55,107 nucleotides of DNA from Patescibacteria group bacterium (lineage in GTDB: Bacteria > Patescibacteriota > Minisyncoccia > Phycocordibacterales > CAIZLB01), in the NCBI GenBank assembly GCA_040384445.1, contig JAZKJG010000004.1, forward strand, positions 1 to 55,107, in the 5' to 3' direction. Shown here piece by piece: positions 20,790-50,015 of this stretch (position 1 is its first letter; each line of letters starts with the position of its first letter). A program made the translations under genes and the position numbers. The notes beneath the pieces are model-generated. The model was not told the DNA's origin, ran no database searches, and saw only the letters and a list, made by a program, of their open reading frames with translations.

Positions 20790-20802
20790 ATCAAAAAAAA
20801 AG

Positions 20803-20838
20803 AAACCACCTCACTCATCCGGAGATGAGGGGTGGTTT
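20803..20838. terminator. GC-rich bidirectional hairpin terminator
   Basis: AAACCACCTCACTCATC-CGGA-GATGAGGGGTGGTTT is flanked by an A-run (20793-20802). Confidence 0.6.
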
Positions 20839-20843
20839 AGCTC

Positions 20844-20975
20844 CTACCGAGGTAAGAGCGGGAATGGTGCCGTTGAAGGCGGGGTAGAGTAAGTCGGATT
20901 TCCTCTTGGCAGTTTGTTGATTGCCAGGAGGATAATAATCAGAATCACTAGTCCTGCGATTTGTTGGCCGGTCAT
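20844..20975 (-). CDS. Candidate 43-aa membrane mini-protein (MTGQQIAGLVILIIILLAINKLPRGNPTYSTPPSTAPFPLLPR)
   Basis: I translated it by hand. It has a hydrophobic core, lies within a GC-richer islet, and ends in TAG. It is not in the ORF track (under 60 aa). Confidence 0.3.
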   Translation of the reverse strand: MTGQQIAGLVILIIILLAINKLPRGNPTYSTPPSTAPFPLLPR

Positions 20976-20977
20976 GT

Positions 20978-21046
20978 TCAGAATCCTCCATAGTAAAGGG
21001 CTGCAATCATGGCGGTAACAGAGGCGACAAAATAAACTTTGTTCAT
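20978..21046 (-). CDS. Candidate 22-aa hydrophobic mini-protein (MNKVYFVASVTAMIAALYYGGF)
   Basis: I translated it by hand. It is the first ATG downstream of promoter 21129-21158. Its TGA stop lies 2 nt before the next ATG. Confidence 0.3.
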   Translation of the reverse strand: MNKVYFVASVTAMIAALYYGGF

Positions 21047-21128
21047 GGGAATAGTTGGTATTTGAAGGTTGTATGGGCTACGTAGCTCATAATCCATTGG
21101 TTCCTAATAGGTCCCTTTGAATGTGTAT

Positions 21129-21158
21129 ATTATACCACATATAGGTTGTAAAAGTCAA
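21129..21158 (-). promoter_or_regulatory. Near-consensus promoter (islet promoter P1)
   Basis: On the minus strand, ACTTGACTTT is followed by 18 nt and TGGTATAATATACACA. The -10 lies at 21129-21134 and the -35 at 21153-21158. Confidence 0.6.
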
Positions 21159-21205
21159 GTATTGGCCCTGTATCTAGATATAAGCCCAAAACCCCTAAAA
21201 AACGC

Positions 21206-21234
21206 TTGATTTATCTTATAAAATTTGATATACA
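21206..21234 (+). promoter_or_regulatory. Candidate rpsB promoter
   Basis: TTGATT (21206-21211), a 17-nt spacer and TGaTATACA (21226-21234) are followed by the ATG 10 nt downstream. Confidence 0.45.
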
Positions 21235-21244
21235 TATACCTTAT

Positions 21245-21913
21245 ATGACACAACAAAAAACAGTAGACGCACAGGGTATGTTTGAGGCAGGAGTTCACTA
21301 TGGAACACTTCGATCTTCACGAAATCCTTCAGTAAAAAAGCATATTTACGGTACAAAAGCGAACGTAGATATTATTGATATTCAAGTTACTTCAGCTCAG
21401 ATCGACAAAGCTCGAGAGTTCCTACAGGATCTAATTGCAAACAACAAAACAATTCTTTTTGCTGCAAGTAAGAACGAGATCATGGATCTTTCAAAAACAT
21501 ATGCTGAAAGACTTGGAAAAATGTATATTTCAGGACGATGGGTTGGAGGACTTCTTACAAACTTTGAAATCATCCGAAAGCGAATCAATAGAATGATTGA
21601 GCTTACAGATATGAAAGCAAAAGGAGAACTTAAAAAATATACAAAGAAGGAACAATCTCTTATGGATAAAGAAGTTGCTCGACTTGAAAAACTATTCCTA
21701 GGAGTTAAAGATTTACAAAGTATGCCTGCTGCCCTTGTTGTGTTAGATCCTAAGAAAGAATTTATTGCAGTTGACGAAGCTATCGCTATGGGGATTCCAG
21801 TTGTTGCTATTGCAAACACAGATTGCAAAATTTCAAATATCACATATCCTATTCTTGCAAACGATTCATCACGATCTTCAGTTGAATACATTCTACATAA
21901 ACTATTTGCATAG
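21245..21913 (+). CDS. rpsB: 30S ribosomal protein S2
   Basis: MFEAGVHYG...VDIIDI...ILFAASK...WVGGLLTN...PAALVVLDPKKE..AV.EA..MGIPVVAIANTD matches S2. The track start at 21206 is a TTG upstream. Confidence 0.9.
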   Translation: MTQQKTVDAQGMFEAGVHYGTLRSSRNPSVKKHIYGTKANVDIIDIQVTSAQIDKAREFLQDLIANNKTILFAASKNEIMDLSKTYAERLGKMYISGRWVGGLLTNFEIIRKRINRMIELTDMKAKGELKKYTKKEQSLMDKEVARLEKLFLGVKDLQSMPAALVVLDPKKEFIAVDEAIAMGIPVVAIANTDCKISNITYPILANDSSRSSVEYILHKLFA

Positions 21914-21950
21914 TTTACATTTACAAAGATAACGTATAAAATTGCACCAT

Positions 21951-22484
21951 ATGATAACATCAGAACAAATTAAAGCACTTCGAGACAAAACAGGAATTTC
22001 TGTTATGGCTTGCAAGAAAGCTCTTGAAGAAGCAAACGGAGACGAAGAAAAAGCTCTTGAGGTTCTAAAAGAAAAAAGTGCAGAACAAGCAGCTAAGAAA
22101 GGAGATAGAGAGTTTGGTGCAGGGATCATCGAAGCATACGTTCACTCAAACGGTCTAACTGGATCAATGATTGAATTAGCATGTGAGACAGATTTCGTAT
22201 CAAACAACGCAGAGTTCCGATCAATGGCTAAAGATATTGCAATGCAAGTTGTAGCATTTTCACCAGCAGTTTTGAAGGAATCTGATGTTACAGATGAGAT
22301 TAAAGCTAAGGCTAAAGAAGACAATGGAGGAGAAGATGCAGATGTAGCCATGCTTTCACTTTTGACTCAGCCATTTATCAAAAATGGTGACTTAACAATC
22401 CAAGGAGTGCTCGACGCTGCTATGCAGAAGTTCGGAGAACGAATTGAGGTGCTTAAGTTTTCACGATTTGAAATCGGGAAGTAG
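21951..22484 (+). CDS. tsf: Elongation factor Ts (short form, 177 aa)
   Basis: It has the N-terminal UBA-like IKALRDKTGISVMACKKALEEANGDEEKALEVLKEK and the core IEAYVHSNG...MIELACETDFVSNN. Confidence 0.9.
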   Translation: MITSEQIKALRDKTGISVMACKKALEEANGDEEKALEVLKEKSAEQAAKKGDREFGAGIIEAYVHSNGLTGSMIELACETDFVSNNAEFRSMAKDIAMQVVAFSPAVLKESDVTDEIKAKAKEDNGGEDADVAMLSLLTQPFIKNGDLTIQGVLDAAMQKFGERIEVLKFSRFEIGK

Positions 22485-22531
22485 ATAGTGTATACTGTGG
22501 AAATGATTCACCAGGATCATATCCATTCGAT

Positions 22532-22607
22532 GCCGTTTTAGCTCAGCTGGTAGAGCAACTGTTTTGTAAACAGTAGGTCCCCAGTTCGAATCTGGGAAGC
22601 GGCTCCA
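22532..22607 (+). tRNA. tRNA-Thr (anticodon TGT), CCA encoded
   Basis: Acceptor GCCGTTT/AAGCGGC, anticodon stem ACTGT/ACAGT with loop TTTGTAA, and T arm CCCAG-TTCGAAT-CTGGG, ending in TCCA. Confidence 0.9.
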
Positions 22608-22671
22608 AAAGAAAAAACTCATGTACAGAAATGTACGTGAGTTTTTTTCATGCATAGTATATACTAGTTCT

Positions 22672-23265
22672 ATGTTTGGTATTACTCCACAACCTACTCG
22701 AAATACTCAAAACCCAAAAGAAGAAATCCGTCGTGGAATTAACTCAACAACATATGATAGTGCAGCAGCGGAGCGGATGAAGATGGATCATTTAAAAAAA
22801 GAAAGAGAGCGAAGAGAAAAAGAAAGAAACAGATTAACCTACGATAGTAAGAAAAGAGAATACGAGAGACTGGTGCAAGATGAAGAGCGAATGAAAACTG
22901 AGAGCAGAAGACTTGAGATGGAGCTTTCAAAATATTCACATGAAGTAGAAGGAGTTAAGTTGCAGGAAAAAAGAGAAACATCAGGAATACCTGCGCTTAA
23001 AAAAGAGGAGCTCGAGTTGGTGCAGAAGATACAAAAAACTGAAAGTGAATTACAGATGTTTAAGAATCGACATCAACGAGTTGTGCAAGAACTTACGCGA
23101 ATGAATCTTAATGATAGGAATTTTGCAGCTGATGTTCACAAGCGAGAAGCGTATAGTATTGGTATTAAATCAAAATATGACATGTTGAAGCAAAAACATG
23201 AAGATGCCATTAAGCAAATAGAAAAATTAAAAGTAGAAGTAGATCAACTTAAAAAAATTATATAG
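22672..23265 (+). CDS. Lys/Glu/Arg-rich coiled-coil protein, unknown function
   Basis: It is a long charged heptad-like sequence. I prefer the ATG at 22672, 8 nt after TATATA (22658-22663). The track start at 22621 abuts the tRNA. Confidence 0.6.
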   Translation: MFGITPQPTRNTQNPKEEIRRGINSTTYDSAAAERMKMDHLKKERERREKERNRLTYDSKKREYERLVQDEERMKTESRRLEMELSKYSHEVEGVKLQEKRETSGIPALKKEELELVQKIQKTESELQMFKNRHQRVVQELTRMNLNDRNFAADVHKREAYSIGIKSKYDMLKQKHEDAIKQIEKLKVEVDQLKKII

Positions 23266-23270
23266 AACAT

Positions 23271-24827
23271 ATGGCTAGAAGAAAAAAAGTGGCACTCATC
23301 ATTATGGATGGGTGGGGATATACAAATGATACAGAACATAACGGGATACATCAGGCTCATACACCGTTTTTTGATCATGCATGGAATACATACCCTCACA
23401 CACTCCTTGAGGCCAGTGGGTTAGCTGTGGGGCTGCCTGCAGGGCAAATGGGTAATAGTGAAATCGGTCACACTACAATAGGTGCTGGTGCGGCAATTGA
23501 TACTGATTTGGTAACTATTGAGAAGGCGATTATGGATGGAACTTTTTTTGATAATGGTGCTTTTTTGCAATTGATTGATCATGCGATAAAACATAAGAGT
23601 AAGATTCATTTAATTGGATTATTGAGTGATGGTGGTGTTCATAGTCACAATACACATGTGTATGCATTTCTAAAACTTGCAGCACAAAAAGGATTGGAAA
23701 AAGAACAGGTGGTGTTACATCTTTTTACTGATGGACGAGATTGTGCACCTAGAACCGCATCAAAATATTTACGAGAACTTATTTCGGAAATGGAATCTCA
23801 CAACATGGGAGTAATTGGAAGTTTTGGTGGAAGATATTTTGGAATGGACAGAGCCGGAAATCATGAGCGAGTGGAGATGGTGACTGATATTTTATTTAAA
23901 GGAAAAGGTAAGTCGGTAAATTTACATGAAATGAGTTTGCCTGATTTCATGGATGCACAATATAAAGATGTGGATCCAACAGGAAAAATTGATGAGTACT
24001 TGGAGCATTATTTGTATACACACCACAATGGTAAAGTTGGTGAGAAAGAGATTAAACACTATATTATATCTAAACACGATGGAGTATTTTTCTTTAACTT
24101 TAGAGCAGATCGGGCACGTCAACTTACTGTAAAGATTCTTGAGAAAAAAGAAGAGTTAGATTTATGTTTTGTGAGTATGACACAGTACGGAGATGAGATT
24201 GATACGGTTGTTGCATTTCCGCCTGCATATATTGAAACAAGTTTGAGTAAAGAACTTTCAGCAGTAGGAATTTCTCATGCTCATATTTCTGAGTCTGAAA
24301 AATTTCCTCACGTTACTTTTTTTATGAATGGACAAAGGGACGGTGTCGAGGTTGGTGAGATTCATATAAAGGTTGATAGTCGAAGTGACATTGCAACACA
24401 CGATCAGGCCCCTGAAATGAAAGCGAAAGAAATCGTTGATGCTTGTTTAGAGGTGCTTAAAACTCATGATTTTCTAGTTGTGAATTTTCCAAACGCAGAT
24501 GTTGTGGGACACACAGGAAATATAGATGCAATTATTAAAGCTATTGAGACGGTTGATGAACAATGTAAGAGATTGGTAGAAGGGATTATAGAGATGGATG
24601 GTGTTGCAATTATAACTGCAGATCACGGAAATGCAGAGGTTATGATTGATAAGGTGACTGGAGATAAGCATACGGCTCATACGATTAATCCTGTGCCGTG
24701 TATTGTTACTGAGAAAGGGTTGAATTTGAGAGATGGTGGAACGCTCGCTGATTTGGCTCCTACTATTTTACAGTTGTTTGATATTCCGGAGACTTCAAGA
24801 ATGAAAGGGAAAGGGTTGATGGTGTAA
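23271..24827 (+). CDS. gpmI: 2,3-bisphosphoglycerate-independent phosphoglycerate mutase
   Basis: LIIMDGWG...GNSEIGHTTIGAG...GLLSDGGVHSH...TADHGNAE are iPGM hallmarks. Confidence 0.92.
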   Translation: MARRKKVALIIMDGWGYTNDTEHNGIHQAHTPFFDHAWNTYPHTLLEASGLAVGLPAGQMGNSEIGHTTIGAGAAIDTDLVTIEKAIMDGTFFDNGAFLQLIDHAIKHKSKIHLIGLLSDGGVHSHNTHVYAFLKLAAQKGLEKEQVVLHLFTDGRDCAPRTASKYLRELISEMESHNMGVIGSFGGRYFGMDRAGNHERVEMVTDILFKGKGKSVNLHEMSLPDFMDAQYKDVDPTGKIDEYLEHYLYTHHNGKVGEKEIKHYIISKHDGVFFFNFRADRARQLTVKILEKKEELDLCFVSMTQYGDEIDTVVAFPPAYIETSLSKELSAVGISHAHISESEKFPHVTFFMNGQRDGVEVGEIHIKVDSRSDIATHDQAPEMKAKEIVDACLEVLKTHDFLVVNFPNADVVGHTGNIDAIIKAIETVDEQCKRLVEGIIEMDGVAIITADHGNAEVMIDKVTGDKHTAHTINPVPCIVTEKGLNLRDGGTLADLAPTILQLFDIPETSRMKGKGLMV

Positions 24828-24842
24828 AAATATACATAGAAA

Positions 24843-24868
24843 AGCCGGACCCTTTGAGAGGTCCGGCT
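24843..24868. terminator. Bidirectional hairpin terminator (gpmI / islet B)
   Basis: AGCCGGACC-CTTTGAGA-GGTCCGGCT. Confidence 0.6.
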
Positions 24869-24886
24869 GAAGTGATGAGGTTGCGA

Positions 24887-25192
24887 TCATTTCCTGCCTT
24901 TGAACGCTCCGAAGAGGTTCATTAACAAGAAGACAATAAAGACGATGGCGGGCATAAATCCTGCCAACATAAACATTGTAATAACAGTAGGGTCGGTGAC
25001 CGGGGAGTGGTCCACATACCGGGCAATCCAACCACCCCATAAAAGTGAGAGGATGAGGCCTGTCAGGAACATCATATGGAGTGGAATGCTGACTTTTTTG
25101 AGAGGCATCACCACTTTTTTGATGGGCACAAACCCGTGAGGCACAGTAGGAGGTTTACGATAAATCGGTGATTCAGGAAGGGATTCTTTCAT
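24887..25192 (-). CDS. Small 2-TM membrane protein (101 aa), unknown function, GC-richer islet B
   Basis: This track ORF has two hydrophobic segments (MMFLTGLILSLLWGGWI and ITMFMLAGFMPAIVFIVFLLMNLF) and a TGA stop. My hand count gives 47% G+C over 300 nt. Confidence 0.55.
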   Translation of the reverse strand: MKESLPESPIYRKPPTVPHGFVPIKKVVMPLKKVSIPLHMMFLTGLILSLLWGGWIARYVDHSPVTDPTVITMFMLAGFMPAIVFIVFLLMNLFGAFKGRK

Positions 25193-25229
25193 AGTTTTTA
25201 AGGTACCGAGTACGTTTTCGGATATGTGT

Positions 25230-25258
25230 ATTATACACTATTTTACCACTAAAGTCAA
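25230..25258 (-). promoter_or_regulatory. Near-consensus promoter (islet promoter P2)
   Basis: On the minus strand, TTGACTTT is followed by 17 nt and TATAATACACA. The ATG at 25192 lies about 37 nt downstream. Confidence 0.6.
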
Positions 25259-25291
25259 TGTATGGTTCAATTTTAAAAATTATAAATAAAC

Positions 25292-25325
25292 ACCCCTCAT
25301 CAGACCTTGTAGATCTGAGAGGGGT
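25292..25325 (-). terminator. Hairpin terminator after islet C ORF
   Basis: ACCCCTC(A)TCAGA pairs with TCTGAGAGGGGT, with one bulge and a 9-nt loop. Confidence 0.45.
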
Positions 25326-25353
25326 AGTGTGTTATGTGCTGGAGTAGGCAGTT

Positions 25354-25569
25354 TCATTTTCCTTTTTGCTTGCGGAAGCAATGAACTACGAATCCAAGAG
25401 TGGACAAACCGAGGATGGTGATCAGGGCGCCAGTAGTACCATACAGGAAACTGTTGTTTCCAAGCAGTGCTTGGTAGAGATAATGCAGGCCAACCACAGT
25501 AGTGGACAAGGCGGTAATGGTAATCGTAATGGCAGAGCGAGAAAAGAAGGAGACAATCTTTGTTTTCAT
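25354..25569 (-). CDS. Small 2-TM membrane protein (71 aa from the internal ATG), islet C
   Basis: The protein is MKTKIVSFFSRSAITITITALSTTVVGL...GALITILGLSTLGFVVHCF and ends in TGA. A promoter-like TTTTCA, 17-nt spacer and TGaTATTGT lie at 25605-25633 on the minus strand. Confidence 0.45.
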   Translation of the reverse strand: MKTKIVSFFSRSAITITITALSTTVVGLHYLYQALLGNNSFLYGTTGALITILGLSTLGFVVHCFRKQKGK

Positions 25570-25639
25570 GTTGCATGAGTGGGTTGAATTTTTGTTCCTC
25601 ACATACAATATCACATAAAATACAAAATGAAAACCCCTG

Positions 25640-25701
25640 AAACTACATATTAAAAAACCCATACTAGTCTCCGCGAGTATGGGTTTTTTAATATGTAGTT
25701 T
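25640..25701. terminator. Very long perfect inverted repeat / bidirectional terminator downstream of eno
   Basis: AACTACATATTAAAAAACCCATAC (25641-25664) is the exact reverse complement of GTATGGGTTTTTTAATATGTAGTT (25677-25700). The loop is 12 nt. Confidence 0.6.
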
Positions 25702-25708
25702 TTAGACT

Positions 25709-27991
<2,283 letters not shown>

Positions 27992-29045: not shown

Positions 29046-30086
29046 ATGAAAAATTTTACCTTTTTACTTGTGTTGGTTTTAGCTGTTTTCGTTTCGCAAA
29101 ATACGCATGCTGGATATAATTCTCGATCGACTGCAGATATACAAAAGTTTTTTAACGTTACTGTACCTACAAGTTCTCAGAATGTTGCCTATGATAGATT
29201 GAAGGAAACACATACTGCACTTACAAATCACGCTACACAAGTTCTGAATCAGATGAATGCAATGACAAGTTTATCGACTGAGCCAAAAGTTGTTCTTGCT
29301 CAAGCCCCTTCGCTTGTCACTGTAACTAATAATGGTGTCTCAACGGCATTAATGGCATCATTTAGACTTTCAATCACAGGTGGGAAGGGAGATACTTATA
29401 TTTATCTTGCAAATGGTACTCTAAAAAGTCAGCAATTTTCAACGACAACGAGCGTTTCTCTAATTGCTACTGACTCTAATTTACAGGTTGCAATACAGCA
29501 TCCAACATATGGCTTTATTACCGTATATCGTATTCCAGAAGGGGCTGTGAAAATGTTTGATGCAACGTATGTTTTCAAGGCTTCAAGTTTGCCAGCAGGA
29601 GCATTTGTGTATACTGCAGATTTAAACACTATACGTTATTTTGCAGGAACTCCAACAGGTGCAATAAAGACAATTTCACTTCCTTTAATACAAACACCTC
29701 CGACTACGTTTAGTAACGACAGTCCAGTCGATACTCTCCCTCCTGTGATTACGTATGTAAGTAGTGTTGCATCATCAGGGGTTATGTATATTAGTTGGAA
29801 AACTGATGAGGTATCTTCTTCAAAAGTATATTATGGTACAACTACAGGTTCATATTTTGCTACGCAAACTGGTCCAAGTGGAACATCTCATTATGCGTAT
29901 CTAAGCGCAGGGGTTTATCCTGATGCAACATACTATTATACAGTTGAATCTGTAGATGCAGCAGGTAATAAATCTCGATCAAAAGAATACACATTCGTAC
30001 TCAAGCGCCCTGTTGGTATCGGTTCCTTCTTCAAAAACTATATCAACAATGTTAAAGCACAAGTTGTATACATGTTTGGAAAATAA
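29046..30086 (+). CDS. Secreted protein with C-terminal fibronectin type III-like domain
   Basis: It has a signal peptide. PPVITYVSS...MYISWKTDEVSSSKVYYGTTTGSY...TSHYAYL...PDATYYYTVESVDAAGN matches the FN3 repeats of the 50916 ORF. Confidence 0.7.
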   Translation: MKNFTFLLVLVLAVFVSQNTHAGYNSRSTADIQKFFNVTVPTSSQNVAYDRLKETHTALTNHATQVLNQMNAMTSLSTEPKVVLAQAPSLVTVTNNGVSTALMASFRLSITGGKGDTYIYLANGTLKSQQFSTTTSVSLIATDSNLQVAIQHPTYGFITVYRIPEGAVKMFDATYVFKASSLPAGAFVYTADLNTIRYFAGTPTGAIKTISLPLIQTPPTTFSNDSPVDTLPPVITYVSSVASSGVMYISWKTDEVSSSKVYYGTTTGSYFATQTGPSGTSHYAYLSAGVYPDATYYYTVESVDAAGNKSRSKEYTFVLKRPVGIGSFFKNYINNVKAQVVYMFGK

Positions 30087-30105
30087 AAAGTGCTATACTA
30101 GAGCT

Positions 30106-30693
30106 ATGAATCAACGAGGATTTATAGCGCACTTCATGATGGCAATTATTGTTGCTGCAACTCTAGGTATTGGTATTTATTGGTATGACGCAAACAGAAA
30201 ATCTCCAGATGGAAAACCTGTTTCTTTTTCGGAATTGATGGGGCCAATATGGAACACTTCACTCAAGTATAAAAATCCTGATGTGGCATTTCAGACTCTA
30301 TTACTGAAAGGCCTAAAACCAACTGCTGTACAATCTACTATTGATGGACAAAGTTTACTGACATTTACGTATGCACCTGTAAATAATTTCACTATTACTC
30401 GAGCGGAAATTAAAGTATTAAAAAATCACAGCGAAGTTTGTATTGATAATCCAAAGGAAACGAAAGTAAATAGAAATGGAATAATGGTTGATTATACAGA
30501 ATATTCGTACGAAGATGAACATTCAGCTGGGAATGTATACACACGCTCATTGCAAAACGACAGAGATAAGTTCTGTATTCAAGCAGTGCTGCAAAGGAAG
30601 GTAAATGACCCACTTGAAGACGAGATTACACGGGTAGAGTTTGAAAGAACACTTGATACGTTCGTGCATGAGTTTAAGGTGATTTTATATTAG
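30106..30693 (+). CDS. N-terminally anchored hypothetical protein (195 aa)
   Basis: The internal ATG at 30106 precedes the TM segment FMMAIIVAATLGIGIYW. The track start at 29956 overlaps the upstream gene. Confidence 0.5.
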   Translation: MNQRGFIAHFMMAIIVAATLGIGIYWYDANRKSPDGKPVSFSELMGPIWNTSLKYKNPDVAFQTLLLKGLKPTAVQSTIDGQSLLTFTYAPVNNFTITRAEIKVLKNHSEVCIDNPKETKVNRNGIMVDYTEYSYEDEHSAGNVYTRSLQNDRDKFCIQAVLQRKVNDPLEDEITRVEFERTLDTFVHEFKVILY

Positions 30694-33503: not shown

Positions 33504-33532
33504 TTGACATTTAACCCTAAATAAGGTATAAT
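33504..33532 (+). promoter_or_regulatory. Perfect consensus promoter TTGACA-17-TATAAT (islet D)
   Basis: TTGACA lies at 33504-33509 and TATAAT at 33527-33532. The leader to the ATG at 33579 is about 40 nt. Confidence 0.65.
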
Positions 33533-33578: not shown

Positions 33579-34085
33579 ATGAAATACAAAATCGGTCAAA
33601 TAATCTGTCTCTGGGAACTCGTTCCACCTTACGGTAATCCAATCATTGTGGTCAGGGAGATCTTGGTCACAATAACCAACATCCACGAAAATGTTCTAGG
33701 AAAAGAATCAAAGTGTCCTGCTGGGATAGGTCTTAAAGGGATCGGTAATGACGGCAAAGTGTATGAAAAACATTGGGATACATGGCCAGACGATCAGATG
33801 CAACCCGACATTTTCTGGACGTGGCGTGAAGATGGGACAATGCTTCCACAACCTTCACTGTGGTTGCCCTTTGAGGCGGTGCTTTATTATTCTTGGGTTT
33901 TCCGCCGCAACAGCGGGAATATAAAAATCGTCGACAAAGATAGTAATCCAATTGAACCCAAAGGGGATTTGGAAAAGTGCTCCACTCACGGGACATTCTA
34001 CTATCCCGGCGCCGAATGCATCAGCTGCAAATCTGCAAAGATGTTCAGTAAGCTGCCGCGACGAAAAGAAACCGTCCGGATCTGA
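33579..34085 (+). CDS. Trp/Cys-containing hypothetical protein (168 aa), GC-richer islet D
   Basis: This track ORF ends in TGA. My hand count gives 49% G+C over 33781-34080. I recognise no family. Confidence 0.5.
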   Translation: MKYKIGQIICLWELVPPYGNPIIVVREILVTITNIHENVLGKESKCPAGIGLKGIGNDGKVYEKHWDTWPDDQMQPDIFWTWREDGTMLPQPSLWLPFEAVLYYSWVFRRNSGNIKIVDKDSNPIEPKGDLEKCSTHGTFYYPGAECISCKSAKMFSKLPRRKETVRI

Positions 34086-34105: not shown

Positions 34106-34140
34106 AAACCCCCAACGTCTCACGACGTCGGGGGTTTCAT
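34106..34140. terminator. Bidirectional GC-rich hairpin terminator (islet D / rnj)
   Basis: AAAACCCCCAACGTC-TCAC-GACGTCGGGGGTTT, then a T-run. Confidence 0.65.
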
Positions 34141-43630: not shown

Positions 43631-43646
43631 AGATATAAAAGAAAAA

Positions 43647-43679
43647 CGCACACTGTTGGGGCAGTGTGCGGATTTTTTT
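43647..43679. terminator. Hairpin terminator
   Basis: CGCACACTG-TTGGGG-CAGTGTGCG, followed by GATTTTTTT. Confidence 0.6.
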
Positions 43680-43698
43680 GATGGAGATGTTTGGGTAG

Positions 43699-44061
43699 TT
43701 AAGCGGCTTTAGCTTTTGTTGAAATGGAGATTGACTGTTGCTCCAGTTCTTCGCGATGTTGCTGTTGATCAACGAGCCTCATGATGAGTGTTCCGTACAC
43801 ATCAGTGGGAAGTTGTGATTGAAGTGATTTAAGTGAGAATTCTTCTCCTTTCGGAAAATCTGAATTGGGTACAAACTTCAATTTGTGTTCCCCTCCATCT
43901 ATTGGAGTCACTTCGAGATGGAAGAGATGGGTTGGCTTGGTAACGTCCCCACTTCCTCCTGAATCTGTAACGGTGTACTTATTTGCAACCCTTTTTACTT
44001 TCGGGCCGAATATAAACTCCAGTAGACTTTTCCAGTTCCTGAACTCTAGAGTAGGATTCAT
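43699..44061 (-). CDS. Hypothetical soluble protein (120 aa from ATG 44061), GC-richer islet E
   Basis: The track ORF (43699..44106) starts at a TTG. The first ATG gives MNPTLEFRNW.... I recognise no family. Confidence 0.4.
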   Translation of the reverse strand: MNPTLEFRNWKSLLEFIFGPKVKRVANKYTVTDSGGSGDVTKPTHLFHLEVTPIDGGEHKLKFVPNSDFPKGEEFSLKSLQSQLPTDVYGTLIMRLVDQQQHREELEQQSISISTKAKAA

Positions 44062-44178
44062 ATATGTAAATAAAGAAACATGATGGTTTTTTCCCCGGAT
44101 GGCCAAGCGAATACGAGTCCGCAGGGTCAGTTGGTAATACTATCATAACTATCTAAAATATTGTATAGTGATATCCAC

Positions 44179-45960
44179 ATGCAGATTAGAAACTTCAGTA
44201 TCATAGCCCACATTGACCATGGTAAGTCGACCTTAGCTGACCGAATGCTCGAACTCACACAGACCGTTGAGAAGCGAAAAATGACAGCCCAAGTCCTAGA
44301 TGACATGGAACTTGAGAAGGAAAAAGGTATCACCATTAAGATGCGTCCTGTTCGAATGGAATATAAAGGATACGTATTAAACCTGATCGACACTCCAGGA
44401 CACATCGACTTTTCATATGAGGTATCACGAGCCCTTCGAGCAGTAGAAGGGTGTATTTTGCTTGTAGATGCAACTCAAGGAGTACAAGCACAAACACTCA
44501 CAACACTCAGAGCCGCGCAAGAAGTTGGTCTTACAATTATTCCGGTACTTTCAAAAGTTGATTCACCAATCGCTCGAATTGATGATATTAAAAAAGAGGT
44601 ATGTACACTACTTTCATGTTCTCCAGAAGATGTGCTTTTAACATCTGGAAAAACTGGAGAAGGCGTTGATATTCTTTTAGAAAAAATTATTAATACAATT
44701 CCTGCACCAACATACGAGTACGAAGGGAGAGATGAATTTAGAGCACTCGTGTTTGATTTTCAATATTCAAACCACCGAGGGGTTATTGTATATATCCGAG
44801 TGACAGATGGGTCTGTAAAAAAAGGAGATGAGTTGTTGTTTAAAATTGCAGGACAGAAATTTTTCGCCCTTGAGGTCGGTGTATTTACTCCACAAGAAAA
44901 ACCAGTTGATGTACTTGAGAAAGGGGCGATTGGATATATTGTAACTGGTATTAAACAATCTGGAGTTGCAACAGTTGGAGATACGATCACTCTATTTAAA
45001 AAACAGTTACCAGAACTTGATGGATATATGAAGCCTGCACCAGTTGTATGGGCAAGTATTTTTCCAGAAGATGCAGATGATTTTGAATTGTTAAAGCAGT
45101 CACTTGGAAAATTGTCTTTGTCTGACTCCGCATTTTCATATGAAGAAGAAAGTTCAGGAAGTATGGGACGAGGATTTCGATCAGGATTTCTTGGGCTACT
45201 TCACCTGGAAATTATTACAGAACGGTTGAAACGAGAGTATAATCTTTCGCTTGTGATTGCGACGCCGAGTATTACATATGAAGTAACCTTGAAAGATGGA
45301 AAAACGAAAACTGTATATTCACCGTCTCTTTTCCCGGAACATGGGCAGGTTGTAAAAGTTCGAGAGCCATGGATAAAAATGCAAATAATCACCCCAGAAG
45401 TCTATGCTGGTGCAATTTATCAATTGCTCTATGATCATGAAGGGGATTTGATTGAGACAGAAAACTTTGGAGACGGGAGATTGACGCTGACTATTTTAAT
45501 GCCGCTTCGAGAGTTGATGCGAAACTTTTTTGATGAACTGAAAAGTGTTTCTTCAGGATATGGATCTTTATCGTATGAATTTTTTGAAATGCAAGACGCA
45601 GATGTGACTCGAATGGATATTTTAGTTGCCGATGAACCAGTCGAAGCATTTACACGAGTGATCGCATCAAGACGTGCAGATGATGAGGCAAACAAAGCTG
45701 TAGATAAACTTGAAAAACATTTACCACGACAAATGTTTAATACAAAAATTCAAGCTAAAGTTGATGGACGAATTATTGCATCCCGAACACTTTCTGCAAT
45801 GCGAAAAGATGTAACAGGACACTTGTATGGAGGAGATGTGAGTCGAAAAAATAAACTTCTTGATAAGCAGAAGAAAGGAAAGAAAAAAATGGAAGAAAGA
45901 GGAAAGGGCAAGGTAACGATCTCACACGAGGTGTTTTTGAAGATGATGAAGAATGGGTAG
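44179..45960 (+). CDS. lepA: Elongation factor 4 (LepA)
   Basis: IRNFSIIAHIDHGKSTLADR...LIDTPGH.DF...NK.D matches LepA, including the LepA-specific C-terminal domain. The ATG lies 9 nt after TATAGT (44164-44169). Confidence 0.95.
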   Translation: MQIRNFSIIAHIDHGKSTLADRMLELTQTVEKRKMTAQVLDDMELEKEKGITIKMRPVRMEYKGYVLNLIDTPGHIDFSYEVSRALRAVEGCILLVDATQGVQAQTLTTLRAAQEVGLTIIPVLSKVDSPIARIDDIKKEVCTLLSCSPEDVLLTSGKTGEGVDILLEKIINTIPAPTYEYEGRDEFRALVFDFQYSNHRGVIVYIRVTDGSVKKGDELLFKIAGQKFFALEVGVFTPQEKPVDVLEKGAIGYIVTGIKQSGVATVGDTITLFKKQLPELDGYMKPAPVVWASIFPEDADDFELLKQSLGKLSLSDSAFSYEEESSGSMGRGFRSGFLGLLHLEIITERLKREYNLSLVIATPSITYEVTLKDGKTKTVYSPSLFPEHGQVVKVREPWIKMQIITPEVYAGAIYQLLYDHEGDLIETENFGDGRLTLTILMPLRELMRNFFDELKSVSSGYGSLSYEFFEMQDADVTRMDILVADEPVEAFTRVIASRRADDEANKAVDKLEKHLPRQMFNTKIQAKVDGRIIASRTLSAMRKDVTGHLYGGDVSRKNKLLDKQKKGKKKMEERGKGKVTISHEVFLKMMKNG

Positions 45961-45972
45961 GTTGAAAATAAG

Positions 45973-46001
45973 TTGACGTACAGTCTTAGGTATGGTTAAA
46001 T
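45973..46001 (+). promoter_or_regulatory. Promoter of islet F ORF
   Basis: TTGACG, a 17-nt spacer and TGgTTAAAT. Confidence 0.5.
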
Positions 46002-46031
46002 ATAAATGATTCTTTAACCCATGAACCTTTT

Positions 46032-46424
46032 ATGAATTTTCACCAAGTTTGTCAGATAATAGGTGTTCCTCTTTACATGTTTCTGGACAACAAGGGACTT
46101 GAACATTTTGGAGGTTTTTTTAATATGCCGAAGAGGTACGATGCGTCCGATGCTGCTCTGTTCATCAGTGGATTGGTGGCATGTGTTCCGATTCCAATTA
46201 CCCTTGGAACACATGCTCTTGCACGTAGTTTTGTTGCAACAAGTCTCCCTCGACCACCACGATGGTGTGTGCCCGCATCTGAGGATGGTGCGGTGATGTA
46301 TTACCAACACGGTTGTTTGCACACGGTGATAATCGCAGATCCTGGTCCTGTGTGGGAAATAAGGGATTTATGCTTTATCTGCATTCCAGTCGGTCAAACG
46401 CTCGACCAAACACTCGTCATGTAA
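46032..46424 (+). CDS. Cys-rich hypothetical protein (130 aa), GC-richer islet F
   Basis: This is a track ORF. I chose the strand from the upstream promoter and the downstream terminator, because other frames and strands are also open here. Confidence 0.4.
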   Translation: MNFHQVCQIIGVPLYMFLDNKGLEHFGGFFNMPKRYDASDAALFISGLVACVPIPITLGTHALARSFVATSLPRPPRWCVPASEDGAVMYYQHGCLHTVIIADPGPVWEIRDLCFICIPVGQTLDQTLVM

Positions 46425-46437
46425 TCCTCTCAACAAC

Positions 46438-46470
46438 AAAAACCGCCCCTCTCACGAGGTGCGGTTTTCT
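46438..46470 (+). terminator. Hairpin terminator after islet F
   Basis: AAACCGC...GCGGTTT with a 14-nt loop, then TTTTCTTT. Confidence 0.45.
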
Positions 46471-46480
46471 TTATAAAAAA

Positions 46481-46591
46481 TTATGTAAATAATATAGGCA
46501 AGTATGCAGCAACCATTCCAATAATCATAAGAAGTGCAATAATAGCCCATATAATCTGAACTTTTTGTCGGTGCTTTGGGTTAAGAAACAT
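46481..46591 (-). CDS. 36-aa single-TM mini-protein (MFLNPKHRQKVQIIWAIIALLMIIGMVAAYLPILFT)
   Basis: I translated it by hand (under 60 aa, so absent from the track). An extended -10 TGcTACTAT (46599-46607, minus strand) lies exactly 7 nt upstream of its ATG, the same architecture as the core genes. Confidence 0.5.
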   Translation of the reverse strand: MFLNPKHRQKVQIIWAIIALLMIIGMVAAYLPILFT

Positions 46592-46608
46592 GGTATACAT
46601 AGTAGCAG

Positions 46609-46929
46609 ATGAGAGAATTTCAGGCAAGAAAAAAACAATACGCTAATTGGCAAAAAATTATTCATTCAAAATGGTTTTTGATAGTTCTTTGTGTGTTGGT
46701 ATTCTTTCTTTCACGAGGTTTACTGCGGATGTACGGGAAGTACCGTGAAGTGAGGCATAATTTTGATACACTACATGCTGATATGGATCATTTGCAGAAT
46801 AGAGAGAAAGAGCTGAACAGAAACATCCGACGGATTAATGGGGTAGAGGGAAGGGACTATGAAATTCGGAAAAAACTTGATGTAGTAAAGCCTGGTGAGA
46901 AGGTGTTGTACATCATGGATACACCATGA
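46609..46929 (+). CDS. Septum formation initiator (FtsB/DivIC-like)
   Basis: It has an N-terminal TM segment, a coiled coil and the motif EIRKKLDVVKPGEKVLYI. It is the only core CDS ending in TGA. Confidence 0.7.
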   Translation: MREFQARKKQYANWQKIIHSKWFLIVLCVLVFFLSRGLLRMYGKYREVRHNFDTLHADMDHLQNREKELNRNIRRINGVEGRDYEIRKKLDVVKPGEKVLYIMDTP

Positions 46930-46941
46930 TATAAATAGCCC

Positions 46942-47202
46942 ATGGATACACCAACAACAAATCAAAAACACATCATGATTTACAGTACGCCAACATGTAC
47001 TCATTGTCATCACCTGAAAGACTATTTAACTGATAAAGGTTTTACATATGAAGATATCGATGTATCAAAAGATTTTGCTGCACTTCAGGCTTCTGTTGAA
47101 AAAAGTGGACAGAAGGGTGTGCCAGTAATAGATATTGAAGGAAAGATTATTGTTGGATTTGATCAAGAAGAGGTAGATGAAGCACTTGGAATTACAAAAT
47201 AA
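46942..47202 (+). CDS. Glutaredoxin-like protein (NrdH/YruB type)
   Basis: IMIYSTPTCTHCHHLKDYL...GVPVIDIEGKIIVGFD shows a CxxC thioredoxin fold. Confidence 0.8.
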   Translation: MDTPTTNQKHIMIYSTPTCTHCHHLKDYLTDKGFTYEDIDVSKDFAALQASVEKSGQKGVPVIDIEGKIIVGFDQEEVDEALGITK

Positions 47203-47219
47203 AAAACTAATATATATTT

Positions 47220-47747
47220 ATGGAGAAAAAAAACGTACTATTATACATCGCAATTCCTGTCGCAATTATTTTAATAGTTGCTGCAATTACAGTTATTAAC
47301 AAAAGAACAAATACAACTATGGGTGCCCCAATCTCATCATCAACAACTACAGAGCAAAATCTAGAACCGATTAAGGAAGCGGAAGCAGGGGATTTAGTGG
47401 TTGTACATTATACTGGAACTCTTGAAAACGGAACTAAGTTTGATAGTTCATATGACAGAGGACAACCTTTCGGATTTTTACTTGGACAAGGGATGGTTAT
47501 CACAGGATGGGATGAAGGACTTGTTGGGGTAAAGAGAGGGGATAAAAAGCAGCTTGTAGTACCTGGAGAAAAAGCATACGGAAATCAGGATATTCCTGGA
47601 CCAGATGGAAAGGTTTTGATTCCAAAAAATTCTACTCTTATCTTTGAGATTGAGGTTGTAGAAGTTATGGCAAAATCAAAAGTAGATCAGCTTATTAAAG
47701 AGCAGCAAGCAATGCAAGCTGCAGCGTCTACAAGTGAGCAGCAATAA
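47220..47747 (+). CDS. Membrane-anchored FKBP-type peptidyl-prolyl isomerase
   Basis: It has an N-terminal TM segment, then VVVHYTGTLENGTKFDSSYDRGQPFGFLLGQGMVITGWDEGLVGVKRGD. Confidence 0.9.
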   Translation: MEKKNVLLYIAIPVAIILIVAAITVINKRTNTTMGAPISSSTTTEQNLEPIKEAEAGDLVVVHYTGTLENGTKFDSSYDRGQPFGFLLGQGMVITGWDEGLVGVKRGDKKQLVVPGEKAYGNQDIPGPDGKVLIPKNSTLIFEIEVVEVMAKSKVDQLIKEQQAMQAAASTSEQQ

Positions 47748-47758
47748 TTTTTGCTCAC

Positions 47759-47830
47759 GCCATAATAGTTCAATGGATAGAACAGTCCCGTCCTAAGGGG
47801 TAGATGTAGGTTCGATTCCTACTTGTGGCA
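47759..47830 (+). tRNA. tRNA-Arg (anticodon CCT)
   Basis: Acceptor GCCATAA/TTGTGGC, anticodon stem GTCCC/GGGGT with loop GTCCTAA, and T arm GTAGG-TTCGATT-CCTAC. Position 32 is G, which is unusual. No CCA is encoded. Confidence 0.8.
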
Positions 47831-47844
47831 CAAAATAAAAGCAT

Positions 47845-48567
47845 ATGACAACTCAACTAAATACTGTTAAAAAATCGAATATAAGTAAAATAATTTTCTT
47901 AACATTCATAACTTTACTAACAGTTTTCCTTTCATATTTTGCATACACTCAAACGAGTGTGCAGATGCGGTTTATAAAGAACAGTACTCAATCATCGGGA
48001 AAAGTAGTTTCTTTGAGTGAAAGTAAAAACAGTGACAATCGTATTATGTATTCTCCTGTTGTAGAGTATACAAATAGAGATGGAGAAATCCAAACATTTA
48101 CTTCTGCATTGTCAAGTAATCCTCCCGGATATGAAATAGGGGATCCAATAGAAATTTTAATACCAAATGATAACAGTATTCCACAAGTAAATTCTTTTAT
48201 GAGTTTATGGATGGCATCAATTATCTTAAGTATTTTTACTCTAGTTTGTCTATGTGTACTTACGTTGTCAATATATTCATCAATTTATAATTCGCGAACT
48301 CATAAGCAACTTATGAAAGAAGGAATAAAGATTCAAGCAAAGGTTATGTCTGTAGCTGAAAGTACATACTCTAAAGAATCAACATTGAGTTGGGCAATTT
48401 ATGCACAGTGGTTAAATCCTCAAGACAATCTGGTTTACAACTTTGATAGTGCAGATATTTATTATAATCCAAAAGAATTTGTTGGAGACACAATTGATGT
48501 ATTGATTCTTCCTCAGAATCCAAAAGTATATGAAATGGATATTTCAAAATTACCTGCCTCAGCATAA
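47845..48567 (+). CDS. Membrane protein with two DUF3592-like domains
   Basis: TM segments flank the pattern GKVVSL...YSPVVEYTNRDGEIQTF.S...SNPPGYEIGDPIEILIP, and a second copy follows. Confidence 0.6.
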   Translation: MTTQLNTVKKSNISKIIFLTFITLLTVFLSYFAYTQTSVQMRFIKNSTQSSGKVVSLSESKNSDNRIMYSPVVEYTNRDGEIQTFTSALSSNPPGYEIGDPIEILIPNDNSIPQVNSFMSLWMASIILSIFTLVCLCVLTLSIYSSIYNSRTHKQLMKEGIKIQAKVMSVAESTYSKESTLSWAIYAQWLNPQDNLVYNFDSADIYYNPKEFVGDTIDVLILPQNPKVYEMDISKLPASA

Positions 48568-48571
48568 ATAA

Positions 48572-48608
48572 AAACACCGCCGGACCAAATGAGGTCCAGC
48601 GGTTTTTT
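48572..48608. terminator. Bidirectional hairpin terminator
   Basis: CACCGCCGGACC-AAATGA-GGTCCAGCGGT is flanked by A- and T-runs. Confidence 0.6.
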
Positions 48609-48648
48609 GCATCACCTATACGGATGATGCGAGCTTCTGTGATGAAAA

Positions 48649-49851
48649 TCAGAGAAGTGTCAGAGGAGAAGGGAAATCTTCAGTATCCAAAAGATTCTTT
48701 TCCCACCCGCGTCGAATTTTCAAACCTTTGTAGGGTGTTACGATTCTCTTCCCGTTTTTGTAAGTGATCACATTGCAGTATTTAACCAGGTTCTTCTTTG
48801 TCTCTTCCATGTTGCCATCGTTGAGACGACCAGGAGAAGCGATGAGAGATTTCAGATTACTTTTGCCAAGATTATGGCAGAAGGAATAAAGTCCAAGGAT
48901 TTGATATCCATTGAGTTTTACGTTAGGATTCACAACTTCCTTAACTTGCGCTAGGTATGTTGGAATCGTAACGTCCTGAAACCATGCATCAGCCTCATTT
49001 TTTGTGAGGCGTTCGGGAAGGGCTGATCCTTTCGGAAGAAACCCATACATAATAGCTTCACTGATCTCGGCGTTGGTGATTCCGTATCCTACCTGATTCA
49101 CACCAGGTTTGAGTGGATCAACCGCTTGGATGCTAACTTTTGTTTTTCCTTCTGCCAAAGGACGATTCTCAAAGAGTTTGATTTCGTTGATTTTATCCTG
49201 AGGCAGTGAAGAGAAATTCCAGTTGGTTCCTTTTGGAGTAGTGTTGACACTGGCAGCGAATGTGAGTAAGGCATCAACTTTTTTAGATTCGGTTTTGTTT
49301 TGGACAGTACCAGAAATAAAAAGGATGACTGTAATGATTACAGGTCCAACAACTTTCGTAGTGACATCAACTACTTTTTTGAAAAAGCTAACGTCACCAA
49401 GAATTGTCTTGTTGATGGAGTCACACATCATATTCATGAGGTGCACCCCGATCCATACTCCGAGAAGGAGAATTAATTTGGTCGTGAGACCTGGAGCAAT
49501 CGCAGGGAAGCGTTCGCAGATAAAAGTATCGAATGGGGTAAGGTAGCCTACTCTAAACGAAAAACTGATACCTGCAACAACCGCCAAAAGAAGTGCTTCC
49601 ATGCAGAATGAAAGGAAAAACTTCCTGTTCATTCTGCAAAAATAATTTCCCATACCCCACACGCTTACACTTAGGAAAGTGAGGATAGTTGACGTAGCGT
49701 CTTTCTGCATCATCAGCAGCAATTTACCGAAGATGATGAATGTAAGGGCGTAGATGATCCCCTGAACATAAATTCCAGGCCGAACCTGATTCACTTTTTG
49801 ATTTTTCATAAGCGTCAATGTACATTTCCACCAAAATAACCACATGGTCAT
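48649..49851 (-). CDS. Polytopic (about 5 TM) membrane protein fused to a C-terminal GH24 phage-lysozyme-like domain, GC-richer islet G
   Basis: The C-terminus reads FENRP...AVDPLKPGVNQVGYGIT...LTKNEADAWFQDV...LNGYQILGLYSFCHNLG...RLNDG...KGLKIRRGWEKNLL, which follows the FE..(x)D....G...GYG.T / L...Q..AL.SF.FN.G / GL..RR..E pattern. It ends in TGA. I prefer the ATG at 49851 over the track TTG at 49869. Confidence 0.7.
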   Translation of the reverse strand: MTMWLFWWKCTLTLMKNQKVNQVRPGIYVQGIIYALTFIIFGKLLLMMQKDATSTILTFLSVSVWGMGNYFCRMNRKFFLSFCMEALLLAVVAGISFSFRVGYLTPFDTFICERFPAIAPGLTTKLILLLGVWIGVHLMNMMCDSINKTILGDVSFFKKVVDVTTKVVGPVIITVILFISGTVQNKTESKKVDALLTFAASVNTTPKGTNWNFSSLPQDKINEIKLFENRPLAEGKTKVSIQAVDPLKPGVNQVGYGITNAEISEAIMYGFLPKGSALPERLTKNEADAWFQDVTIPTYLAQVKEVVNPNVKLNGYQILGLYSFCHNLGKSNLKSLIASPGRLNDGNMEETKKNLVKYCNVITYKNGKRIVTPYKGLKIRRGWEKNLLDTEDFPSPLTLL

Positions 49852-49916
49852 TTTCCTCGTACCGCACAAATATGGCGGATTTTGTTGAAGGTAACAGTTG
49901 CCTGTTAGGTGTGTAT

Positions 49917-49945
49917 ATTATACCATTTATAAGTAGTAAAGTCAA
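49917..49945 (-). promoter_or_regulatory. Near-consensus promoter (islet promoter P3)
   Basis: On the minus strand, ACTTGACTTT is followed by 17 nt and TGGTATAATATACACA. The 16 nt at the -10 are identical to P1 at 21129. Confidence 0.6.
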
Positions 49946-50015
49946 GTTATGAAAACGGGGAAATATTCATACACCACAAGCCTAATCTGTGCTATTATCA
50001 GAGCAACTCAAACCT

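Follow-up and report, generated by a model that had tools for sequence, protein, structure and literature searches.

Bacteriophage genomes are known to carry morons, each of which is a single coding region, equipped with a promoter and a terminator of its own, that separates two genes found side by side in related genomes and deviates from them in composition (PMC4378225). According to the Hendrix/Juhala definition quoted in the same source, the terminator is factor-independent and the mechanism of acquisition is unknown. Seven short gene islets (A to G) that recall this anatomy are described here from a bacterial chromosome: contig JAZKJG010000004.1 of assembly GCA_040384445.1, whose 55,107 nucleotides (nt), analysed as a whole, are called the window. 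With 38.4% G+C, the window is part of the chromosome of an ultra-small, uncultured Patescibacterium of Paceibacteria/Parcubacteria type, and its nearest relatives among GTDB genomes are metagenome-assembled genomes labelled Patescibacteria, Parcubacteria or Paceibacteria. The Patescibacteria, or candidate phyla radiation (CPR), have tiny genomes in which most lineage-specific genes are of no known function, and no account of the islet pattern in CPR genomes was found in the literature searched.

All seven islets sit between conserved housekeeping genes, at the operon junctions where the first-pass annotation had placed them, and are spread over 29 kb as single-gene units of 0.3–1.3 kb each (Table 1). 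The housekeeping genes of the window comprise rplY, rpmE, prfA (RF1), rpsB, tsf, gpmI, eno, dusB, dnaX and RNase J, together with an FtsX/ABC pair, glycosyltransferases, lepA, DivIC, glutaredoxin, FKBP and rRNA methyltransferase genes; the flanks of the islets are formed by rpsB, tsf, gpmI, eno, dnaX, RNase J and lepA. Comparisons were made with sibling 1 (SRR13312974; loci L001, L162 and L165), sibling 2 (L002/L161) and a separate sibling locus, L166.

The islets constitute a compositionally distinct class of genes that extends throughout the lineage. The reading towards which we lean, with somewhat less than even confidence, is that they are moron-like autonomous accessory cassettes of lateral, within-phylum origin that evolve fast at inter-operon hotspots. 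Each islet is a self-contained transcription unit at the junction of conserved housekeeping operons, laid out as a near-consensus sigma-70 promoter (in four of the seven), a short to medium leader, one small open reading frame (ORF; two in A) and a GC-rich intrinsic terminator. The units would encode lineage-specific accessory products: in A2 a peptide that crosses the membrane once, in B and C small hydrophobic proteins ending in a basic tail, in G a membrane-anchored muramidase, and in D, E and F three proteins of unrecognisable type. According to the lateral proposal, the cassettes would have entered a low-GC lineage by lateral transfer from a source pool with the composition of Patescibacteria at approximately 42–47% GC, or of their mobile elements, and would then have diverged very fast or been swapped for distant alleles, with their promoters, leaders and terminators staying conserved. 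A GC-richer Patescibacterial source would explain the C-rich third positions, the unchanged A-ending Lys, Glu and Gln codons, and a share of TGA stops of about 25% or more.

Composition and transcription signals of the islets

A greedy ORF call on the window separates two populations, the core ORFs and the islet ORFs. Synonymous G+C at third codon positions (GC3s, or GC3) is 0.230 ± 0.034 in the core ORFs (n = 41; range 0.167–0.350), while the values of the islet ORFs (Table 1; 0.476 in A2 and 0.47–0.51 in C) depart from it with z = 3.7–8.3, and the fit of islet codon usage to the core, measured as log-likelihood, has z = –4 to –9. The frequencies of A, C, G and T at third positions are 0.37, 0.11, 0.12 and 0.40 in the core and 0.26, 0.27, 0.15 and 0.32 in the islets. 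Third-position C (C3) is the real discriminator of the islets, and total G+C is a weak marker: nine of the thirteen 400-nt segments in the top 5% of G+C in the window lie inside ordinary core genes. The first-pass annotation had called the islets GC-richer on the basis of hand counts, and these were exact (0.470 at 24887–25186, 0.493 at 33781–34080 and 0.390 for rplY at 14255–14554); the description stands for GC3 and third-position C, but not for total G+C, which is not distinctive.

The change is orderly. In two-fold NNY codons T gives way to C, in four-fold boxes A gives way to C, the choice of A-ending codons for Lys, Glu and Gln is the same as in the core, and third-position G (G3) barely moves. 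The biggest relative gains are those of the four-fold NNC codons; GGC, CCC, TCC and CGC stand at just 0.02–0.03 in the core, and C at four-fold sites at 0.00–0.03 in the RNase J, FKBP and glutaredoxin genes. The share of C in two-fold NNY codons is 0.36–0.75 in the islets and approximately 0.30 in the core, and preference for C over T in these codons is the near-universal direction of translational selection. The islets might thus be the most highly expressed genes of the genome, using optimal C-ending codons. We regard this as very unlikely, given that rpsB, rplY and tsf, which encode ribosomal proteins and EF-Ts, show little or no shift, which argues against the classical form of such selection, that the largest gains occur in four-fold NNC codons nearly unused by the core, and that the enrichment in TGA stops would be left unexplained.

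Amino-acid composition and membrane character can be ruled out as causes of the shift, because core membrane proteins do not share it (C3 of 0.06–0.11). The first-pass annotation had offered to give up its proposal if there were no deviation beyond amino-acid effects; the deviation is there. Intergenic DNA in the window has 33% G+C, and the islets are therefore off neutral equilibrium. The shift follows the coding strand and does not depend on the replication strand, D and F being encoded on the plus strand and the remaining islets on the minus strand. Islet C3 resembles the complement of core first-position G, and an antisense mis-annotation was accordingly considered; it was rejected, since D and G are validated in their frames and codon positions 1 and 2 are gene-like, the first G-rich and the second T-rich.

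Stop codons show the same division, as had been noted before. The core genes end in 26 TAA, 13 TAG and 1 TGA, and five of the eight islet ORFs end in TGA (Fisher p = 1.8e-4). Read-through or recoding of TGA was rejected: the sibling 1 copy of D (L001) ends in TAA at about the same point, and further in-frame stops follow the TGA of the DivIC gene. The latter, a DivIC/FtsB-type gene (46609–46929, plus strand), is the lone core gene with a TGA stop and has the highest GC3s of the core (0.35). L161, L162 and a further relative, L163, have this TGA too, in every case in frame with the glutaredoxin ATG that follows 12 nt downstream; read-through is unlikely there because a second in-frame stop lies within 1–3 codons in the window and in L162.

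Regarding transcription, exactly four matches of at least 11/12 to the sigma-70 consensus exist in the 55 kb, both strands considered, and they lie upstream of A, B, D and G in the right orientation. Their number is at chance level (shuffles give 3.0 ± 1.9), so the evidence resides in their placement and in their conservation among siblings. The near-consensus promoters that had been attributed to most islets were thus recovered at A, B and G, and in perfect form at D, but C, E and F have weak matches at most. An exact 15-mer, TGGTATAATATACAC, is common to the promoters of A and G (21123–21137 and 49911–49925, minus strand), and the –10/start region is nearly identical in the promoters of B, of the sibling 2 gene at the B/C site and of the sibling 1 copy of G. 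To judge from these likenesses, the five promoters would represent one common, strong type. Leaders, inferred from the –10 hexamers, measure approximately 25–100 nt, roughly as first described. The best terminator hairpins of the window are those at B, E and G, and GC-rich hairpins also end A, C, D and F. A perfect 26-nt inverted repeat just 3' of eno (25640–25701), probably the eno terminator, bounds the region available for a promoter of islet C.

Sibling genomes and the source of the composition

The class is not confined to the window. In a wider set of 670 ORFs from approximately 45 related low-GC Paceibacteria loci, of which 70 are GC3-high and 600 are not, the GC3-high ORFs are shorter (mean 146 versus 307 amino acids), have a higher mean C3 (0.29 versus 0.13), are more often preceded by a promoter of at least 11/12 (12/70 versus 7/600, p = 2e-8) and more often end in TGA (21/70 versus 34/600, p = 8e-9). 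Seen from the other side, high GC3 is found in 12 of the 19 ORFs with such a promoter, where the base rate is about 10%. The distinct gene class proposed at first therefore holds and generalises. Several GC3-high ORFs (L004 7102–7683, L006 8915–9484, L043 4752–6009, L032 576–1142 and L034 4144–5764) end in VPEP, a transmembrane (TM) segment and RRR, an arrangement that resembles the PEP-CTERM sorting signal and is unexpected in Patescibacteria.

When the codon usage of the islets is pooled, the best fit comes from core genes of GC-richer Patescibacteria (L041, GC 0.46, C3 0.28, G3 0.19; r = 0.87), and the window's own core fits it worse than uniform usage does. TGA accounts for 23–27% of stops in GC3-high ORFs, compared with 21% in the ordinary genes of Patescibacteria with GC3 of 0.4–0.5 and 2–8% in low-GC genomes. 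Small outlier ORFs regress to a GC3 of approximately 0.45 from both sides, with 81 high and 6 low in low-GC genomes and 5 high and 43 low in high-GC genomes. Finally, a 40%-identical homologue of G occupies a different locus of another low-GC genome, where its GC3 is 0.46 among neighbours mostly at 0.18–0.28; it has the same cassette anatomy (a 12/12 promoter, a leader of approximately 210 nt and a strong terminator). In a genome of 47% GC, relatives of the domain have a GC3 of 0.58–0.61, close to that of their surroundings. These codon, stop, regression and homologue data speak for a GC-richer source within the phylum, from which the islets were imported.

An earlier suggestion was that the cassettes came from a higher-GC host of the presumed episymbiont, for which the one supporting observation is the higher GC of the islets compared with the genome. 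Capture from a host appears highly improbable. No homologue of D was found outside the lineage, its single relative being in a sibling genome; the relatives of G whose context was examined are all in Patescibacteria-like contigs (no taxonomy is attached to the rest); the promoters share one local type; and C3 above G3 with unchanged A-ending Lys, Glu and Gln codons is the signature of GC-richer Patescibacteria.

For five of the seven islets (A2, B, D, F and G), a sibling genome has a counterpart at the same position. Where measured, these counterparts are 31–48% identical, whereas flanking proteins on the same contigs are 74–99% identical. In sibling 1, D has a counterpart of 47% identity (GC3 0.49) and F one of 31%, B is weakly similar (z = 5.6) to an ORF adjoining eno in L165, and G is 44% identical (GC3 0.45), with a TGA stop and an identical core promoter. 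Next to rpsB, L166 carries A2 with its promoter. By contrast, sibling 2, about equally distant by its methyltransferase, is without D, F and G: its dnaX–RNase J gap measures 66 nt (L002) and the empty D site has a different, AT-rich hairpin terminator, F is absent from L161, and between the FKBP and methyltransferase genes of L161 there is just non-coding DNA besides a tRNA-Arg gene, both G and the DUF3592 gene being absent. The search of siblings recommended at the outset thus revealed both patchiness and synteny.

Other genes are held instead at the B/C and E junctions of relatives. The gpmI–eno junction of sibling 2 contains an unrelated GC-rich membrane protein gene with a TTGACT-17-TATAAT promoter, and the ABC–lepA site of L161 (5266–6270) a PemK/MazF-type toxin gene of low GC together with an unrelated ORF of 136 amino acids that is GC-rich and runs on the other strand. 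The gene sets at the gpmI–eno and dnaX–RNase J junctions differ in nearly every relative. From the presence, absence and identity data it follows that the junctions are turnover hotspots with extremely divergent residents. A scan of JGI metagenomes with LepA returned relatives at 75% identity or less, too distant for synteny. The junction downstream of tRNA-Arg(CCT) is itself variable (window 47759–48567, L161 9723–9795, L162 1933–2017): it holds a DUF3592 protein gene (GC3 0.17–0.21) and G in the window, G and no detected tRNA-Arg in L162, the tRNA alone in L161, and the tRNA with another ORF in L163.

These findings make horizontal acquisition plausible, if indirectly, through the patchy presence, the G homologue elsewhere, the match in codon and stop usage and the regression to approximately 0.45. 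They also contradict a recent acquisition by this genome, because siblings carry diverged versions of A2, B, D, F and G at the corresponding junctions, with promoters conserved where compared.

Several observations weigh against a lateral origin from a GC-richer pool. The positional counterparts look like vertical inheritance, and promoters or untranslated regions are conserved where they were compared (A, D and G). Between the window and sibling 1, synonymous sites have come close to saturation, core genes included (residual signal 0.14–0.35), and yet both copies of D and of G keep a GC3 of approximately 0.45–0.50. The two copies of G have no residual synonymous identity at four-fold sites (0.22 versus 0.26 expected under independence), and C at their two-fold pyrimidine sites is 0.50 and 0.69, versus 0.21–0.28 in several flanking core genes. 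Because of this saturation, a single old transfer would need a donor with a GC3 of approximately 0.6–0.8, failing which either repeated allelic replacement or maintenance in place has to be invoked. No donor was identified: the lone homologue that D has among 5.8 billion proteins belongs to a sibling genome, G has just 87 relatives, and B, C and E have no homologues among the 80 loci compared. A mobility mechanism was not found either; the window contains no integrase or transposase, and the 13-nt direct repeats that flank islets are at chance level. Two such pairs, GATGGTTGGGTAG at E and CTC[A/T]CACGAGGTG at F, were rejected as not above chance (approximately 0.2 expected per region). The regression towards the middle in high-GC genomes may be due in part to spurious ORFs or to ordinary AT-rich transfers. 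Lastly, the window also holds accessory genes of ordinary AT-rich composition, those of a 1034-amino-acid S74-domain protein and of the DUF3592 protein, and accessory status alone is therefore insufficient to produce a deviant composition.

In the main rival, which is still a live one, the islets are resident, vertically inherited, hyper-evolving genes that maintain a C-rich synonymous composition in place. Behind this could lie mRNA-level selection (for stability, or to avoid A/U-rich cleavage sites or R-loops), or an asymmetry of transcription-coupled repair or mutation in the most strongly transcribed units. The same-junction counterparts with conserved promoters, leaders and terminators, the composition kept in both lineages despite saturation, the strand specificity of the shift, the association of strong promoters with high GC3 and the AT-rich accessory neighbours are all as this explanation would have them. 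It does not account for the excess of TGA or for the GC-poorer outliers of high-GC genomes; C, E and F are shifted without strong promoters, and rpsB, rplY and tsf, presumably well transcribed, are not. Transcription-associated deamination of the non-template strand lowers coding-strand C, so that the known bias runs the opposite way, and islet transcripts are not unusually structured beyond their terminators (folding z = +0.6 to –3.0, terminators included). On balance we consider maintenance in place rather unlikely.

A broader version, which we hold to be unlikely, is that low-GC Patescibacteria possess a phylum-wide class of autonomously and very strongly transcribed, hyper-evolving genes for small envelope proteins, whose C-rich, TGA-rich composition is actively maintained in each genome and does not come from a donor; it would be kept up either by mRNA-level selection or by an asymmetry of repair or mutation linked to transcription. 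If composition is maintained in place, it would point to mutation or selection acting in a gene-specific manner, a regime so far undescribed in these organisms, and the base composition of a gene would become a readable mark of a distinct expression and evolutionary regime in minimal cells. High C3, TGA stops, a near-consensus TTGACT-17-TATAAT promoter, a GC-rich terminator and an inter-operon position form a simple signature for a coherent subset of the lineage-specific genes in many genomes. The genes that it picks are fast-evolving, mostly membrane-associated, and candidates for roles in host attachment, cell-wall attack or interactions with phages.

Islet products and neighbouring genes

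The islet products (Table 1) would mostly be destined for the envelope, and their features suggest an envelope, host-interaction or phage-related function. A hydropathy scan finds one segment in A2, two in B and one in C (two by eye). The L166 counterpart of A2, upstream of rpsB, has likewise 43 amino acids (alignment z = 8.7), with length and TM segment kept, and C has no detectable counterpart. The homologue of D, on a Logan contig, lies at the same dnaX–RNase J junction and differs by four in-frame indels through which the frame is kept; an AlphaFold2 prediction on the two-sequence alignment reached a pLDDT of 34, an unusable model. Searches of Pfam, PHROG, PADLOC and PDB returned nothing for A–F.

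G corresponds to the lysozyme fusion recognised at first, with four predicted TM segments and a PF00959 domain. It exceeds the gathering score of PF00959, set at 22.3, with 36.4 bits over residues 256–390 (E = 7.4e-9), and among the PHROG endolysins it matches the family phrog_7 (E = 1.8e-10). Inspection by eye shows the stretch E...D...GxxQxGYG, with Gln where Thr is usual, and no sequence relative was found in PDB. The 87 relatives of G were counted among 1.84 billion representatives, and its N-terminal domain of approximately 200 residues occurs in 3–4 other proteins of that set. From this architecture, G is predicted to be a membrane-anchored GH24 muramidase.

A phage ancestry deserves mention in this context. 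The islets could be domesticated lysis or moron remnants of Patescibacterial phages, B and C being holin-like proteins with two TM segments and G a membrane-tethered endolysin. In accordance with this, G matches PF00959 and phrog_7, B and C are small and hydrophobic with basic tails like class II holins (a resemblance based on general knowledge), the anatomy fits the moron definition, and a protein with an S74 tail-spike chaperone domain adjoins islet A. The genes are, however, dispersed over 29 kb with no lysis-cassette or prophage arrangement; scans of the viral contigs of IMG/VR found no close relatives of G or D, A–F have no PHROG matches, and neither integrase nor phage structural or integration genes occur in the window, so the islets do not reside in a phage or prophage. 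We consider such an origin improbable.

Still less credible, and in our estimation barely so, is that the islets do not encode proteins, being instead structured RNA genes or random open frames in spacer of higher GC. Homologues are lacking for A1, C and E, open frames that arise by chance reach greater length where GC is higher, and the transcripts of A, B, C and E fold somewhat better than shuffled sequences (z = –2.4 to –3.0). These scores are accounted for by the terminator hairpins, and Rfam at gathering thresholds gives three tRNAs in the window and no other match; a structured non-coding RNA gene was accordingly rejected, there being no covariance-model match beyond the tRNAs and no exceptional folding energy. 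The frame of D maintained through its indels, the Pfam domain of G, the conserved length and TM segment of A2 and the gene-like codon positions argue for translation.

Table 1. Islets of the window, with their ORFs, promoters and terminators
Feature	Position	Strand	Description
Islet A			between surface-protein gene and rpsB
A1 (first ORF)	20978..21097	-	39 amino acids (22 from MNKV); TGA stop; candidate ORF, not conserved in L166
A2	20844..20975	-	43-amino-acid single-pass membrane peptide; GC3s 0.48; TAG stop
A promoter	21129..21158	-	TTGACT-18-TATAAT, TG extension; conserved in sibling locus L166
A/surface-protein gene terminator	20803..20838		GC-rich bidirectional hairpin, read from sequence
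Islets B and C			between gpmI and eno
B	24887..25192	-	101 amino acids, 2 TM, basic C-terminal tail; GC3s 0.495; TGA stop
B promoter	25230..25258	-	TTGACT-17-TATAAT (11/12)
B terminator	24843..24868	-	10-bp stem, 7 G-C pairs
C	25354..25569	-	71 amino acids, hydrophobic, basic tail; frame open to 25662; GC3s 0.51; TGA stop; candidate ORF
C terminator-like hairpin	25291..25327	-	read from sequence
Islet D			between dnaX and RNase J
D	33579..34085	+	168-amino-acid soluble protein; C-terminal C..H...C..C motif; GC3s 0.465; TGA stop
D promoter	33504..33532	+	perfect TTGACA-17-TATAAT (12/12); promoter and leader of about 40 nt conserved in L001
D/RNase J terminator	34106..34137		bidirectional, GC-rich; stem conserved in L001
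Islet E			between ABC ATPase gene and lepA
E	43699..44061	-	120-amino-acid soluble candidate ORF; frame open to 44106; GC3s 0.37; TAA stop; no homologue found
ABC ATPase gene/E terminator	43647..43670		bidirectional
Islet F			between lepA and DivIC gene
F	46032..46424	+	130-amino-acid Cys-rich protein; GC3s 0.36; TAA stop; L162 counterpart 31% identical
F promoter-like site	45973..46001	+	TTGACG-17-TTAAAT (9/12); -35 TTGACG conserved in L162
F terminator	46439..46468	+	repeat found in repeat search
Islet G			between tRNA-Arg plus DUF3592 gene and rRNA methyltransferase gene
G	48649..49851	-	about 386-400 amino acids; 4 N-terminal TM and C-terminal GH24/Phage_lysozyme domain; GC3s 0.41; TGA stop
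G promoter	49917..49945	-	TTGACT-17-TATAAT, TG extension; about 40 nt of core promoter identical in L162
G terminator	48576..48603	-	11-bp stem, 8 G-C pairs

Other features of the window were observed along the way. Between prfA and islet A lies the gene (17685–20789, plus strand) of the 1034-amino-acid surface protein, which has a Peptidase_S74 (tail-spike chaperone) domain and a tail rich in Pro, Glu and Val. L166 lacks it at the corresponding junction. Its GC3 of 0.22 is nevertheless like that of the core, and the accessory genes here are therefore of two compositional kinds. A gene for a 48-amino-acid membrane peptide (46481–46627, minus strand) overlaps the start of the DivIC gene; it has a core-like composition, is easily missed by annotation, and its product is 65–84% identical in L161, L162, L163 and L008 and 49% identical in L010. 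Two ORFs on the plus strand (29046–30086 and 29956–30693) overlap by 130 nt in different frames, where L002 has a single ORF of 651 amino acids with weak similarity, and may represent a frameshift or a split gene. Finally, nucleotides 301–600 of the window are extremely AT-rich (18% G+C), with a 17-bp AT hairpin at 341–380.

Comparison with known systems

Small membrane proteins invite comparison with class II holins and type I toxins, which are likewise small and hydrophobic, bear charged tails and are expressed from strong promoters through long leaders. A2, B and C, with 43–101 amino acids, one or two hydrophobic segments and basic or proline-rich tails, have a likeness to them that is architectural only, and A and B have strong promoters; unlike in those systems, there is no adjacent endolysin (G is 23 kb from B and C) and no family match in Pfam, PHROG or PADLOC. 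G resembles the GH24 lysozymes and endolysins in its C-terminal 150–180 residues, which match PF00959 and phrog_7, and differs from them in its N-terminal domain with four TM segments and in having neither a neighbouring holin nor a prophage. Integron gene cassettes, which are promoterless ORFs followed by attC and arrayed beside intI, are not a match, as the islets have their own promoters, are dispersed and share no 3' recombination site.

The genomic islets, flexible genomic islands and hypervariable regions of streamlined free-living bacteria such as SAR11 and Prochlorococcus have in common with the present islets conserved junctions, variable lineage-specific genes related to the envelope, atypical composition and patchy presence. 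An atypical composition combined with patchiness among close relatives, as expected of horizontally acquired islets, is what is found here. The differences lie in the size of the units, single genes of 0.3–1.3 kb with their own promoters, in the lack of integrases and of tRNA-linked att sites (G alone of the islets is near a tRNA, tRNA-Arg), and in the direction of the compositional deviation, which is upwards.

Phage morons resemble the islets in several respects. A, B, D and G are single units with a promoter of at least 11/12 and a GC-rich terminator (C, E and F having weak promoter matches), the flanks of D and G are adjacent in relatives (L002 and L161, respectively), and composition differs from that of the neighbours by the GC3s deviations given above. 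Unlike morons, the islets stand in a bacterial chromosome, between housekeeping operons, and are GC-richer than their surroundings, and several have been kept at the same site in siblings while diverging to 31–48% identity. Laterally acquired DNA is normally AT-richer than the genome that receives it. The upward direction of the deviation is therefore unusual. In the lateral reading that we tentatively favour, the islets would represent an uncommon form of genome mosaicism whose general kind is already known, and we infer that the donors would have been GC-richer Patescibacteria or their mobile elements.

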